A DNA stretch of 64,000 nt from Escherichia phage PA45: the sequence record KP682389. One strand, written 5' to 3'. Position numbers: made by a program. Each line of letters opens with the position of its first letter. The stretch's first letter is position 1. This document shows, one piece after another, positions 45,001 through 51,000 of the stretch.

Positions 45001-48000
45001 AACACAGATCGGCGTGAAGGCCATCATTGACCAGATCCGCGATGAGGCTGCAAAGTCGCCGGTTGTGTCCGAGCTGCGTAAAGAAATAAAAAACGCGCAG
45101 GGGCAGGCTGTAAAGGATGCTGCAATTAAGACAACCGAAGTTGTAGGGACTCTCAGGGAAGAAACGACAAGAACGATTGGTGGTATTGAAACCCGCATTA
45201 GCACACTGGATTCGTCAACCAGTGAATCGCTTAATGAGGTCGACAAGCGCATCACTAAATTGGATAAAGAAGGCGGTGAAGCTTTTCTTGCAATGTGGTC
45301 AAAAAAAGCGGGAGTTGATGGTATCACTGCGGGGATCGGGATTGTCGCCGGAAAAGACAGTGAAGGCAGGCCTGTAAGTCAGGTTGCAATTTCTGCGTCG
45401 CAGTTGTTTGTCTTTGACCCGAATAATCCGGATAACACAGCCTATCCGTTTGCGGTATCAGGTGGCAAGGTAGTGATCCCGAAAGCGATGATTTATGACG
45501 CGGTGATTGAAACACTGGTGTCGCGGAAGGTTGTGGCGGATGAGGTAAAAGCCGGGGTAAGTATCACTTCGCCAGTTATCCGGAGTGCCGTTATTCAGAA
45601 CGGAAACTTTCAGGTTGATTCTCAGGGTAACCTGAATATTGGAGGCCTTTTCAGTGTTACGTCACAAGGGCAACTGACAATTCGTTACTCTAATCAGAAT
45701 GTAGGACTGGTGATCCGCAATGATAAAATTGAGGTTTATGACCAGAATGGACGACTGGCTGTTCGCATAGGCAGATTACGCTGATCAGGAGGTGAGTATT
45801 GGAATACGGTTTTGCCATTTATAACAGAAATAACGTTAATGTTACGGGCGTGCTGACTCCAGTATTTTTCCTGGACAGATTTACAGCGGAGTCTGGCTCA
45901 AAGACGTACACTAATAAACCCGACGGGAAATCATTGCAGGCTGTATGTTGTTTATTTCCCTGGAATAATGTATTTGCGGATCGGAAAGTACCGAAGATAA
46001 CCATTAATGACAATACGGTGACGTGGTCGAATCTTGAGCAGGGTATGGGATCTTATATTTATACATTCTGGGGATAAGTGTTATGTACGGTTTGAGCATT
46101 ATGAAGCCGGATGGCAGCGTATGGATAAGTCCAGGTTTTACGCCGCAGTGTCTGATCAACAAAGGCACCATACCGGCGACTGAAAAGTCTTTTTTTAAAA
46201 CATCAATCCCGTCAGGCAAAAGTTGTTTTTTCTTTATCAGAACAGAGAAGAAGGCCGATGTCATGTACACGCATGAACAGATTGATGGATATCATGCACT
46301 AAGGCTTCATGTAATTGTCAGGGGAACGAACCCTGGTGTTACGACGGTTTATGCTTTCGCGAATATGGTTACTCCACCTTCTGAGTATGGTATCGCCATG
46401 TATAACCCGGACGGTGAGATGATTTATCATGGCGAAATGATGCTGCTTGACGCGAAGTTAATACCTGTTGATATCAAATTTGAAAAGGACCTTGGATATC
46501 CATGCGCAATCATGCCTGCACTGGTCGGGTATTATAACTGGAAAAGAACTCCTTATGATCGACCGATTTATACCACATCCACTGGTGCTACAGGAAATAA
46601 AATATATTCCTGTGAGCATTATTCCGGTGGTGCAACATGGGATATTCGAAAGCCGTATATAGATAAGGTCCTGGTTATTAATACATCAGTATATGATTAG
46701 TTGAAGCGAGTCTTTAATATTCATTTAAAATGTCTAAAAAGATGTATTATTAAAAAGTTTAGCGTGTTATCTGAATACAGGATATCTTAAATGAAGAGTA
46801 TAGCAACACTGGTTGTGTGTGCAATCTCCGGGATTGCCTGTGTAAATTTATCTGCACATGCAGCAGAAGGAGAGCATACAATTTCTCTGGGGTATGCGCA
46901 CTTTCAGTTTCCGGGACTGAAGGATTTTGTAAAGGATGCGACTGCTCATAACAGGGAGACTTTCAGTCATTTCGTCAACAGAAACTACTTTTCTTCATTG
47001 GGCGAATATACAGATGGTCGGGTCAGTGGATATGAAGGCAAGGATAAAAATCCACAGGGCATTAATATCAGGTATCGCTACGAGATAACGGATGATTTTG
47101 GCGTTATCACCTCTTTTACATGGACGCGTTCTCTCACTAACTCACAGACATTTATTGATGTGCAGTCAGCCGATCATACCAGGAAGATTAAGAATCCGGC
47201 AGCTTCTGCCAGAACGGATATCAGGGCGAATTACTGGAGTCTGTTAGCGGGGCCTTCATGGCGGGTTAATCAGTACATGAGTTTATATGCGATGGCAGGG
47301 ATGGGCGTTGCTAAAGTTAGCGCTGACCTGAAAATTAAGGACAATATTAACAGTAGTGGCGGATTTTCTGAAAGCAACAGCACGAAAAAAACCTCCCTTG
47401 CGTGGGCTGCAGGTGCACAGTTTAACCTGAATGAGAGTGTTACACTGGATGTGGCTTACGAAGGTTCCGGCTCTGGCGACTGGCGCACGAGTGGCGTTAC
47501 TGCTGGCATTGGCCTGAAATTCTGACCTGTATCCGGTAACCGTTTACTACCCGCTGTGATGGCGGGTTTTTTATTGCCCGTACAGGGCAAAAACCGTAAA
47601 TTATGCGTGGGTGCCTTTCGGCTGATGGCTGGAGGGTGAACCTGAAGGCCTGATGTGGAAAGGCCCCGAGTCAACTTAACGTTAACCCGAGGCCCTAACA
47701 CTTCGTACCTTAAGCAAGTAGAAGGTTAGCGCCTCTCTGTAAAAGGAGTCAAGCGCTATGTCGCAAAAATCGCTTATCACCGTCACAATTTGCATGACGG
47801 TTATCTTCACCATCTGGATGTTGCACGGTTCACTGTGTGAGTTCCGGCTGAATTTGTGGGGAGCGGAGTTTGCGGCGTTCTTACAGTGTAAGCAGTAGGA
47901 AAACCGCGACGGGGACGAGAGTCCCCGTCAACTGGTTGCTGAGGTTCAGCCGATATGGCACCCGTTTCAGGTGAGAGAATGAACGATAAAATTCTCTGGT

Positions 48001-51000
48001 ATATGCAGCGTGTTGTGAGAAATTCCCGCAACCCTGAATTTATGAATGAAGTTAAAGACGCCTGCCTTAAAAAGCAGGCGTTTTGTTTTGAGGCACCTGA
48101 TGGCTTTTTGGTGCTGCGTTCTGTGCTCAGTGCTGATGGTATCCCTTATGTTCTGGTGTTGCTGGGCGTGTGTACGGGGAGTAACAGCGTTGAGCGTTAC
48201 CTGCCGGAGGTGAAGACATTAACCCATCTGGCTGGCGGACGCTGGGCTGAGTTCCATACGGCAAGGCGGGGATTTATCCGGCTGGGAAAACGACTGGGCT
48301 TTGAGCGAATGCCGGATGATGAGGATGGCTTCATGGTGTTCAGGATAGCGGTCTGACTGCTACAGTTTTCATCATTGTGTTTAAACCAACATTGTAATTC
48401 ACATTCTGACCCTGCTCCGGCAGGGTTTTTTGTTATCCAGGGGGCCATTATGGGTGGAAGTAAAGGCGGTGGTGATACCAAAGTAAAACCAACAGCAGCG
48501 CAAATAGCACAGGAAGAAGTGGCCTGGAAAGGGTGGCAGGATTACAAAAATATCCTCCGCCCGGCTGAAGATAACTTCATGGAAAAGGTCGATGACCTGA
48601 ACAGTGAGCAGCAGTACGACAATATTGCTGGCACCACAAATCTGGGGTATCAGAAACAGTTTGGCGAAGCACGGAAGGAGCTTGCGGGTAATCTTGCTCA
48701 GTCCGGCGTTGACCCATCCAGTGGTCGTTTTAATGCGGTAATGAATGCGAACCAGAGTGACCAGGTAACCGGGCAGATTGACACAACCACACGGGGGCAG
48801 GTATCGCAGGCAGATAAGTATGTTGCCGGGCTACAGGATGTTGCTGCTCTCGGTTCTGGTCAGAAGGCGGATGCGTTACAGAGTTTTAACTCTCTGGCAG
48901 ACAGCAGTCTGGCAAAAGCTAAATCGGATGCACAGGCGGCGTTTACGAAACAGCAGGGGCGAGCCTCTCTTGTTGGCGCTGGTCTGGGTGCGGCAGGTGC
49001 ATATGCGATGCATAAGGCTGGCGGTAGCGGAGGAAGTGGCGGTGCTAAAACACCTGGCACCGGCGCTAATGCCATTCAGCATCAGGCTCAGAACTGGAGA
49101 CTGTAATTATGGAGTATGGCAAATACGAAACTCTCGCAAGGGCTGGTTATTCAGGAGCAGACCGCCCACAGGGTGACTGGCAGACGTCAGCAGCGCTGAC
49201 ACGCCAACAATACGACGACTGGCGAACCAGATATTTGCCCCGCGTGGCAAGGCTGGCTGACCTTGGGGAGAACAACAGTCTGATGAATGCACAGCTTGCA
49301 CGGGTGGGAGGCCTTGCCACTTCCAGTCTCCGTACAGCGCAGATGGCGCAGGATAACCAGATGGCGAGATACGGGGTAAACCGCCCGGATAATCCCGACA
49401 GTAATACGCTGGGGTTACGTAATGCCCTGGCAATTGCTGGCGCGAAAAATGGTATCCGTGAAGCCGAACAGGATCGCCAGATGAATATTCTGACGGGGGC
49501 TTCTGCACCGGCAAGACAGAAACTGAGTGTTGGCGGCCAACTGGTGGCAGCGTAAGGGGGCAATATGGGATACGGTTTACTGGATATTGCAAATCAGTCG
49601 CGGCGTGAGGCATTACAGGGAATAAGTGACGCAGACAGACGACGTGAAGAAATTGAGGCTGCGAACAAACAGATGGCGGCGCAACAGAAAGCGCAGAACA
49701 AGCAGAATATCGGTACGGGCATTGGTACGGGGGCGGCTATTGGCGCATCCGTTGGTGGTCCTGTTGGTGCTGTTGCTGGAGCAGTAATTGGCGGCATTGC
49801 TGGTTCTTTGTTTTAAGGAGTGGTGAATGAGCGGATTTGCACAGGGGTTACTTGCCGGATTCAGCACCGTTGACCAGGCAATGACCCGTCGTAAGGAGCT
49901 TGGTCTGCGTGAAGCACAGCTTGCCCGGCAACAGAAAAATAACGAGCGCGATTTTGAGTTTGCGCAGTCTCAGTTTGAACATAATAAAAACGTTGATCAG
50001 CGGAACTTTGATTACAGAGCCAAAGTTGACGACCGTAATTATGCACTGAAGGAGAGGGAGTTTAACGCTAACCAGAATTACCGGAATGCGTCACTGGGTA
50101 TGGAGCAGCAGCGACTCCAGTTGCAGAAATACAACCAGCGACGGCTTGAGTATAACGATATGATTGCCCATAGCCAGCCACTAATGGAAGCGCTTGGAAA
50201 AGCAATTGAGGCTGGCGATCAGGAGGCTGCAACGCGTCTGTTCGGGCAGCTGCCAAAGGGACATCCATTAATTCTTATGTCAAACGAAGGCTATGCAGCG
50301 AAAGCGGGTCAGGCCGTGATCAACCTGCAAAAAATCTTTGGTGATAAGCCGGACATGGCGATCGATTCGCTGAATACCCCGGAAAATCTCGATGTGCTTT
50401 CCGGCGTGTTTGCCCCGGAACTACAACAGCGTATTGGCATGCCTGATTCAACCGGGGACAAAACGATAAAAGAGGCCAGGATTGGCAGTATCGTACCAGC
50501 GCAGCAGGAAGGGTACGTACTTATTGGCCTTGATCTCACATACAGCGATGGCTCCACCGCGCATAAACCTGTAACAGAATACGGCAGTGCGCACCCTGAT
50601 GATCAAACCGTGCTGGCGATACCCGTTGATAAGGCTATCGCTCAGGTCAGGGATCGCAGCAAATTTGCAGAGATATCGAAAAATTATGGTTATTTTATGC
50701 CGAAGCAGCAGGGACTTTCTCTGAAAGAGCTTCAGAAGGGGGCCAGCAACGTAGCGGCGGACGCGATCAAGAATGGCGGTAATGCTCAGGCTGCGGTGGA
50801 TGAATATTATGCTGCGACTGGTTCACAACCGCATCAACAGAAAATTCAGCAACAAAAACTTCAGCAACAGGTTATCAACTGGGCGGGAGATGATCCTGAT
50901 AAGCTGTCATTTGCCAGAAATGTAGCGGCCCGTCAGCCTGAAATGCTGGAACCTCAGAATCAGAAATTGCTGGAGAACGGGTATGCGAATTTTCTCCGTA

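Follow-up and report, generated by a model that had tools for sequence, protein, structure and literature searches.

Among described type I toxin-antitoxin (TA) systems, the two closest to the locus treated here are hok/sok (parB) of R1, in which translation of mok as far as the hok Shine-Dalgarno (SD) sequence is mandatory, and hokW-sokW of the Shiga toxin 2 (Stx2) phage Sp5, which brings about faster growth arrest and doubled phage release (Takada et al. 2021, Toxins 13:796, PMC8621323) and whose sokW RNA vanishes after mitomycin C (PMC8621323). We analysed a hok-family gene that lies downstream of a lom-family gene in a 64,000-nucleotide stretch of DNA from Escherichia phage PA45 (KP682389; this whole stretch is the window), and refer to it as the lom-side hok. 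The best explanation of our results, which we consider likely to be correct, is that this gene belongs to a complete hok/sok-type type I TA cassette, with a Hok protein of catalogue cluster 72, inserted as a moron between lom and gene L0129 of the Stx2 phage. Over 1.8 kb around the hok open reading frame (ORF), the Stx2 phages 933W, VT2-Sakai (Sp5) and many relatives are 100% identical, as are prophages in 365 complete E. coli genomes.

The toxin gene and its relatives

The gene is an ORF of 46 amino acids with the SD sequence AAGGAG at 47743-47748, 9 nt ahead of its ATG, both of which had been reported in a preliminary description made from the sequence by eye. That description assigned the ORF to the Hok/Gef family and named a negative profile search as one refutation of this; our search was positive: Pfam PF01848 (HOK_GEF) matches residues 8-44 with 33.2 bits, above the gathering cutoff of 22 (E value 4e-8), and the PHROG 251 profile ('MokW-like host killing') matches with an E value of 2.8e-24. 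All seven residues that are more than 80% conserved in the Hok catalogue (R1 M1, C16, T18, L30, C31, E32 and E41) are present, as M1 and, at a constant offset of 4, C12, T14, L26, C27, E28 and E37. In size and in its N-terminal transmembrane helix, too, the peptide conforms to the family, whose members have about 50 residues. Both cysteines of the peptide, C27 and C44, are encoded directly, whereas R1 Hok has a tyrosine at the second cysteine position. A search of 5.8 billion proteins retrieved 56 relatives from E. coli, Shigella and Salmonella, nearly all of exactly 46 amino acids, with a C-terminal half that is near-invariant across the subfamily (LCE.R....GAEFAAFLQCKQ). The median ratio of non-synonymous to synonymous substitution rates (dN/dS) is 0.28 over 64 pairs, and it is lower in the C-terminal half of Hok. 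Judged by these sequence comparisons, the ORF is intact and under purifying selection.

Among the named NCBIfam subfamilies, the best match is HokA (NF007290), with which the lom-side Hok shares the C-terminal AAFLxCK motif and the presence of both encoded cysteines. A HokA identity was nevertheless rejected, since the score of 38.4 bits falls far under the equivalog cutoff of 89 and the two proteins occupy separate catalogue clusters (93 for HokA, 72 for the lom-side Hok); HokA is also longer, at 50 amino acids.

As a gene, the ORF is an object of a known kind, already annotated, catalogued and reported toxic, and our analysis adds little to it as a discovery. RefSeq/PGAP names it 'Hok/Gef family protein' (WP_000078907.1), and labels in phage records include 'small toxic polypeptide', 'host toxic membrane protein' and 'MokW-like host killing', while the original 933W record leaves 47758-47898 unannotated. 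The identical 46-residue peptide is entry 72_1589 (cloned; plasmid LRP157), in the high-abundance cluster 72 of the catalogue of Escalera-Maurer et al. (bioRxiv 10.1101/2025.08.07.668861, Table S2). In that preprint, 42 of the 45 tested homologues were toxic and the non-toxic ones were 19_179, 60_1482 and 69_1540 only; since 72_1589 was among the 45 and is absent from these exceptions, the peptide can be read, by exclusion, as in effect toxic. The preliminary description had named overexpression as a test of its toxin assignment, and others have in effect supplied the outcome with this identical peptide. The preprint places Mok, Sok and mRNA structure outside its analysis (bioRxiv 10.1101/2025.08.07.668861). 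What is new here is the regulatory anatomy, namely the module borders, the promoter, the fold-back, the alternative 5' stem, the antisense promoter and the strand-specific terminator hairpin. Our literature search turned up no paper on the hok next to lom in 933W: the discussion of the hokW paper makes no mention of a second hok in Sp5 (PMC8621323), a preprint on the Pas small RNA merely cites the hokW paper, and Fozo et al. (2010) put the number of Hok genes in O157 strains at 12-14, with no coordinates in the main text.

The preliminary description had also recognised two Hok toxins in the region, the second being a hokD-like gene placed at 60558-60713. There are indeed two, and the second does fall in the HokD cluster; it lies, however, on the minus strand (the plus strand has stops) and is the published hokW. 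The primers and product of Takada et al. for hokW-sokW match 60561-60882 on the minus strand, not the lom-side locus, with a hok ORF at 60561-60713 that encodes a 51-residue product (MKQQKAM...). In the catalogue, HokW (35_712) belongs to the HokD cluster (35) and HokA to cluster 93, and two hok copies occur in 3.5% of hok-bearing phages (bioRxiv 10.1101/2025.08.07.668861).

The two loci share a phage, a family and a layout: in both, a 5' end beginning GGGUGC is followed by a leader of ~150 nt, the toxin gene, a post-stop hairpin, 28 nt and then GCACCC, with the Sok -10 hexamer TAACCT at an equivalent position. They differ in sequence, with 229 of 356 module positions identical (~64%) and peptides that are 33% identical (46 residues in cluster 72 for the lom-side Hok, 51 residues in cluster 35 for HokW). 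They also differ in their match to Rfam RF01794, which scores 113.5 bits at hokW-sokW and 35.6 at the lom-side locus, and in that hokW has an in-frame upstream ATG, which the lom-side locus lacks. The 5' tails of the two Sok RNAs differ, and predicted cross-duplexes (-62 and -41 kcal/mol) are much less stable than those of the cognate pairs (-138 and -139 kcal/mol), so cross-regulation between the two loci is unlikely. While hokW-sokW has been characterised experimentally, the native lom-side cassette is known from sequence.

Predicted regulatory anatomy of the cassette

BLAST searches against phages and plasmids revealed that a module of ~375 bp (47589-47963) is common to P2-like phages (P88, Chuche), where it occupies moron-type positions, to IncF/IncI plasmids, and to Salmonella, E. 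albertii and Citrobacter. The relatives used for comparison were taken from these matches, a scan of species genomes having given only 7 loci. Homology starts at 47589 or 47609 and ends at 47963, with a right border, GGCACCC (47957-47963), that is complementary to GGGUGCC (47609-47615) at the predicted 5' end of the mRNA. Upstream, a layout of TTGnnn, ~17 nt, TAnAnT, 6 nt and GGGTGCC is kept in all contexts despite unrelated upstream DNA, placing the predicted hok mRNA start 6 nt after the -10 hexamer TAAATT. As aligned here, the module borders coincide with the predicted promoter on the left and, on the right, with the GGCACCC complementary to the 5' end.

Three further observations concern the relatives themselves. 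On phi367, phi419 and pSTEC1012_1 (L011, L014 and L016 in our set), the leader and 3' region have stayed nearly identical while the Hok coding sequence is much diverged (MPQKTIIVSILCITIL...; dS ~1), as if alleles had been exchanged inside the cassette. Two tandem copies lie ~480 bp apart on pSTEC1012_1. Enterobacterial hok cassettes 76-100% identical to the lom-side one, several of them among the 7 loci of the species-genome scan, were found on contigs assigned to unrelated taxa, labelled Xanthomonas pisi, Planococcaceae (a metagenome-assembled genome) and Vagococcus sp. (L003, L004 and L006), most likely through contamination of these assemblies.

The predicted mRNA (47609-47964) has a minimum free energy (MFE) of -155.4 kcal/mol (z -6.5) with its 5' and 3' ends paired, the MFE structure joining 47609-15 to 47957-63, 47618-25 to 47946-53 and the Sok-target region 47707-20 to 47933-45. 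In an alignment of 18 sequences, 89% of cells form the 28 pairs of these closing helices, whereas sliding the partner leaves 25-52%; double-sided changes occur at nine pairs, and the covariation score was reached by none of 500 shuffles. The innermost 7 bp are uninformative on their own, because they are invariant apart from one G-U change. When the RNA is truncated at its 3' end, the 5' end is predicted to form a 10-bp stem (47609-19/47657-67), which corresponds to the RNAalifold consensus stem of columns 1-11/50-59, present in 17-18 of the 18 sequences with one compensatory change from UA to CG. A Sok-target helix (RNAalifold columns 85-98/120-131) is kept in 18/18 sequences, with changes of the G-U type only. 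The hairpin that follows the stop codon has changed from GC to AU in 7/18 sequences and from AU to CG, GC or UG in 7/18, among others, and is probably the 3'-end protector of a processed mRNA, by analogy with R1 hok. The comparative evidence thus lends support to the long-range closing helices, the alternative 5' stem and the post-stop hairpin as predicted elements.

These folds resemble R1 hok/sok in several respects. Both a 5'-3' closure of the tac/fbi type and an alternative 5' pairing of the tac/ucb type appear in the models, next to the Hok signature and the post-stop hairpin. A short antisense RNA (here predicted), a promoter for it that overlaps the region in which hok translation starts, and a target loop with a YUNR motif are likewise common to both systems.

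The preliminary description had seen neither a Sok RNA nor a mok frame by eye, and had suggested a search of the leader for an antisense promoter and fold-back elements. That search yielded a predicted Sok promoter and terminator as well as the closing helices, so that only the missing mok frame held for the phage copy. The plus-strand sequence AGGTTAG, which contains the Sok -10, is invariant in 18/18 homologues, and the hexamer TAACCT is the same, at the equivalent position, as in hokW-sokW; there, primers YO-421/422 turn TAGGTTAG into CCGGCTCG, and the resulting 'pro-less' sokW loses antitoxin activity (Takada et al. 2021, PMC8621323). The predicted Sok-like RNA comprises a single-stranded 5' tail of 20 nt, a 15-bp terminator hairpin (47696-47662) and UUU, and folds with -39.5 kcal/mol (z -7.3). 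Its terminator hairpin has -26.1 kcal/mol on the antisense strand versus -11.9 kcal/mol on the sense strand, an asymmetry that arises because its G-U pairs would be A-C mismatches in the sense RNA. The antisense version is the more stable in 16/16 folded homologues (mean difference -9.2 kcal/mol), and although the upper stem varies by lineage, RNAalifold retains the stem on the antisense strand. RF01794, which models the sense leader, matches 47609-47771 (E 7e-5), collinear with the ORF. A cis-encoded antisense antidote RNA is therefore probable from the sequence.

In R1, the mok frame begins in the Sok target and extends over the SD and start of hok. At the lom-side locus no such frame exists, as no leader ORF reaches the hok SD: that starting with ATG at 47653 stops at 47679, that starting with GTG at 47655 stops at 47729, and an in-frame TAA lies in the leader at 47740-42. 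The GTG ORF was considered as a substitute for mok and dropped, since indels in the loop of the hairpin leave its frame unconserved. Of 17 homologues, only 4 have an open mok-like frame; in the rest, indels in that loop throw it out of register. Unlike R1, the lom-side hok has a strong SD of its own, for which we predict direct control by a local hairpin. Both the full-length fold and the truncated fold with 47650-47715 blocked contain this SD hairpin, and the probability of GGAG being unpaired is 0.00-0.04 in these two states versus 0.13-0.55 in the free truncated RNA, in which AGGUUAGCGCCUC is held within the target hairpin 47689-47735 and the SD is partly open. Across 18 homologues, 94% of cells in the SD hairpin can pair, versus 23-47% when slid.

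Taken together, these elements suggest the following mechanism. Transcription from the hok promoter would give an mRNA folded back on itself, its 5' end on 47946-63, in which the local hairpin encloses the SD and 47933-45 occupies the Sok target, permitting neither translation nor Sok binding. Removal of the 3' part would let the 5' end switch to 47657-67, exposing the target hairpin with its YUNR loop and leaving the SD partly open. An antisense RNA of ~58 nt, running from 47716 to 47659, would then pair with 47659-47716 and free AGCGCCUCUCU, so that the SD-sequestering hairpin re-forms; the Sok:mRNA duplex would be a substrate for RNase III, and translation would be blocked without a mok frame. 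Once the short-lived antisense RNA is lost, on prophage induction or on loss of the element, the 46-residue peptide would enter the inner membrane and depolarise or lyse the cell. By analogy with hokW, the cassette would most likely help to kill the host and release phage when the prophage is induced, stabilise the prophage, or do both.

Table 1 Features of the lom-side hok locus and its neighbours, in window positions.
Feature	Positions	Strand	Basis or detail
lom-family gene (Ail/Lom barrel)	46791-47525	+	Pfam match
Intrinsic terminator of the lom-family gene	47549-47573 (stem 47549-47567, then T-run)	+	Stem-loop ACCCGCTGTGATGGCGGGT; terminator scan
Predicted hok promoter	47574-47602	+	-35 TTGCCC 47574-47579, 17-nt spacer, -10 TAAATT 47597-47602
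Core hok mRNA module, ~356 nt, predicted ends	47609-47964	+	From 5' GGGUGCC to 3' GGCACCC
5' element, tac equivalent	47609-47625	+	Predicted to pair with 3' fbi (full-length RNA) or 47657-47667 (truncated RNA)
ucb-like partner GGAAAGGCCCC	47657-47667	+	Truncated folds, RNAalifold
Predicted Sok-like RNA, ~58-60 nt	47657-47716	-	Predicted start near 47716, predicted end ~47659
Predicted Sok-target hairpin of truncated mRNA	47689-47735	+	Loop 47709-47717 (CUUAAGCAA), YUNR motif
Predicted Sok promoter	47723-47752	-	-35 TTGACT (47752-47), 18-nt spacer, -10 TAACCT (47728-23)
Predicted SD-sequestering hairpin	47728-47757	+	AGCGC 47728-47732/GCGCU 47753-47757; CUCU 47735-47738/GGAG 47745-47748
hok-family toxin gene, 46 amino acids	47758-47898	+	ORF, Pfam, PHROG, RefSeq; peptide MSQKSLITVTICMTVIFTIWMLHGSLCEFRLNLWGAEFAAFLQCKQ
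G+C-rich post-stop hairpin, no T-run	47907-47930	+	Compensatory changes
Predicted 3' fold-back region	47933-47963	+	47946-47963 fbi-like (ends GGCACCC), to 5' end; 47933-47945 to 47707-47720
L0129, 125 amino acids (most likely start)	47979-48356	+	PHROG 610 short-form match, homologue lengths
First strong plus-strand terminator downstream of hok promoter	48408-48432 (stem 48408-48427, T-run)	+	Terminator scan

Alternative explanations

Several results weigh against a complete, working cassette. R1 needs mok, and the phage copy has no mok frame of the R1 type. A strict consensus promoter scan of 47400-48500 gave no match; the evidence for the predicted hok and Sok promoters is comparative only, because their hexamers fall below the 4-of-6 rule of the scan. 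The RF01794 match, at 35.6 bits, is under the gathering score of 59, the Sok terminator has three U's only, and Sok expression and the transcript ends at the lom-side locus are in silico throughout. As for the SD switch, it follows from MFE and partition-function folds in which the predicted SD opening is partial only, and the 18 homologues contain zero double-sided changes or covariation in the SD hairpin, a region that is near-invariant. The fold-back element would also lie inside a transcript that probably runs on past it: strong terminators stand 20-30 nt beyond GGCACCC in nine other contexts, whereas in the Stx-phage copy there is none at that distance. This absence of a terminator after fbi is a further difference from R1 and makes activation by 3' trimming of the R1 type uncertain. 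Finally, the chromosomal hokA, hokB and hokC are reported to be unable to mediate post-segregational killing.

The co-orientation of hok with lom and the flanking late-region genes raises the rather doubtful alternative of an accessory to lysis timing, in which Hok would be made mainly from a Q-antiterminated late transcript reading through the lom terminator, with the antisense promoter serving only to keep hok off in the lysogen until it is silenced by head-on transcription after induction. The behaviour of the sister system described above, namely faster growth arrest, a doubling of phage release and the disappearance of sokW RNA after mitomycin C (PMC8621323), would fit such a role. However, chromosomes, P2-like phages and IncF/IncI plasmids, which have no such late transcript, carry this cassette too, complete with a promoter and a terminator of its own.

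Somewhat less probable still is a silent or decaying cassette, whose peptide would be toxic if forced but whose native locus no longer expresses Hok, making it a neutral passenger like the hok loci of the K-12 chromosome. The absent mok frame and with it the absence of translational coupling, the loss of the cassette's own terminator in the Stx-phage context, through which the fold-back might never be relieved, and the reported inactivity of chromosomal hokA/B/C would all be expected of such a passenger, as would the +1 frameshift or early stop seen in some lineages (L021 and L020 in our set). Selection on the coding sequence argues otherwise, with dN/dS at ~0.28 and the 46-residue length strictly conserved, as does the conservation of promoters, fold-back helices and antisense terminator with compensatory changes. 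Most other members of the cluster likewise lack mok, so that the missing frame does not reflect a recent lesion. The frameshift, caused by an extra G in the GGGG run (47859-62) of the Stx2a phages LC616044-47 (L021 being LC616046.1), yields a product of 44 amino acids that has lost AEFAAFLQCKQ, but it is rare (~4-14 of 187 phage records; 1 versus 42 IMG/VR contigs). We considered this allele as a sign of general decay and dropped the idea, given its rarity; the copy under study is intact. One copy, on an E. albertii plasmid, is degenerate at its ends and broken off by a stop at codon 2.

A defence or exclusion module, acting by abortive infection once another phage has shut down transcription in the host and the Sok RNA has decayed, is improbable: R1 hok/sok is reported to lower T4 plating, hok genes are ~fourfold enriched in prophages (bioRxiv 10.1101/2025.08.07.668861) and the module sits at moron-type positions of P2-like phages, but no PADLOC model matches and the catalogue found hok not enriched near defence systems (bioRxiv 10.1101/2025.08.07.668861).

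Genomic setting and implications

The lom terminator is the left limit of the hok unit. The preliminary description had placed terminators both after lom and after the gene that follows hok, and the terminator scan bore out both stems with their T-runs. Because of the position of the first strong terminator downstream of the hok promoter, the sequence suggests that hok and L0129 are probably co-transcribed, in a transcript of ~820 nt ending at 48408-48432, and that the interval 47550-48432 is probably one transcription unit.

The gene after hok, L0129, had been described as encoding 133 amino acids from 47955 to 48356. It is present, but its start is most likely the ATG at 47979, which gives 125 amino acids: the PHROG 610 profile (124 positions) fits the short form end to end, and homologues from Salmonella, Yersinia, Serratia, Pectobacterium and Dickeya have 123-125 amino acids. 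The first eight codons of the longer reading lie inside the hok module, their ATG GCA CCC belonging to the fold-back element, so gene callers that start L0129 at 47955 put part of this element into the protein. With the start at 47979, the ATG and its AGGTGA (47969-74) adjoin the fold-back element, 6-16 nt away, and fold-back pairing and initiation of L0129 translation may interfere with each other.

A confident AlphaFold2 model of L0129 (predicted local distance difference test score, pLDDT, 89.2) was compared with the Protein Data Bank (PDB) using Foldseek. All matches listed were acetyl-CoA-binding proteins of the GNAT type, at a modest level of similarity (best E value 2.5e-4, TM-scores 0.43-0.66); the closest of those listed were N-terminal acetyltransferases and the GNAT toxins of TA systems AtaT, TacT and GmvT. 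The model thus suggests a small GNAT-like fold. Searches of L0129 against Pfam, NCBIfam and PADLOC gave no match, and a sequence search of the PDB gave nothing useful. By eye, we saw no clear Q/RxxGxG/A acetyl-CoA motif in the beta4-alpha3 loop, and we noted no antitoxin-like gene adjoining L0129.

Elsewhere in the window, the ALIL pseudoknot, a frameshift signal of IS3-family transposases, has three identical matches of 121.5 bits each, at 7480-7596 (plus strand), 25187-25303 (minus) and 27391-27507 (plus), implying that one insertion sequence is present three times within or beside the prophage. At 22248-22507, STnc100 (plus strand, 207.7 bits) adjoins AsxR, the anti-small RNA of Stx2 phages (minus strand, 88.1 bits). 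The window also contains three tRNA genes, at 20591-20839, as well as isrK/C4 antisense RNA elements at 17144-17342. Close to the right-hand end of the prophage, at 63504-63592 on the minus strand, the sRNA-Xcc1 family has a match of 69.1 bits, which exceeds the gathering score.

Joining these lines of evidence, we tentatively propose a broader reading, which is less likely than not to be right. The hok/sok of cluster 72 would be a mok-independent variant, in which the antisense RNA, rather than blocking a leader ORF, flips the target hairpin into the SD-sequestering hairpin 47728-47757. In that case the Stx2 phage would have a pair of orthogonal hok/sok systems, of which one is transcriptionally fused to a GNAT-fold gene, with a fold-back element that abuts, and perhaps competes with, the ribosome-binding site of that gene.

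For the family, a cluster in which mok is absent from most members and the RNA architecture is kept offers a natural test of Hok/Sok control without translational coupling. For the phage, the sole functional work on Hok in Stx2 phages removed only hokW-sokW, and the modest phenotypes that it reported, a twofold change in release and a 40-minute delay, may be buffered by the lom-side locus.

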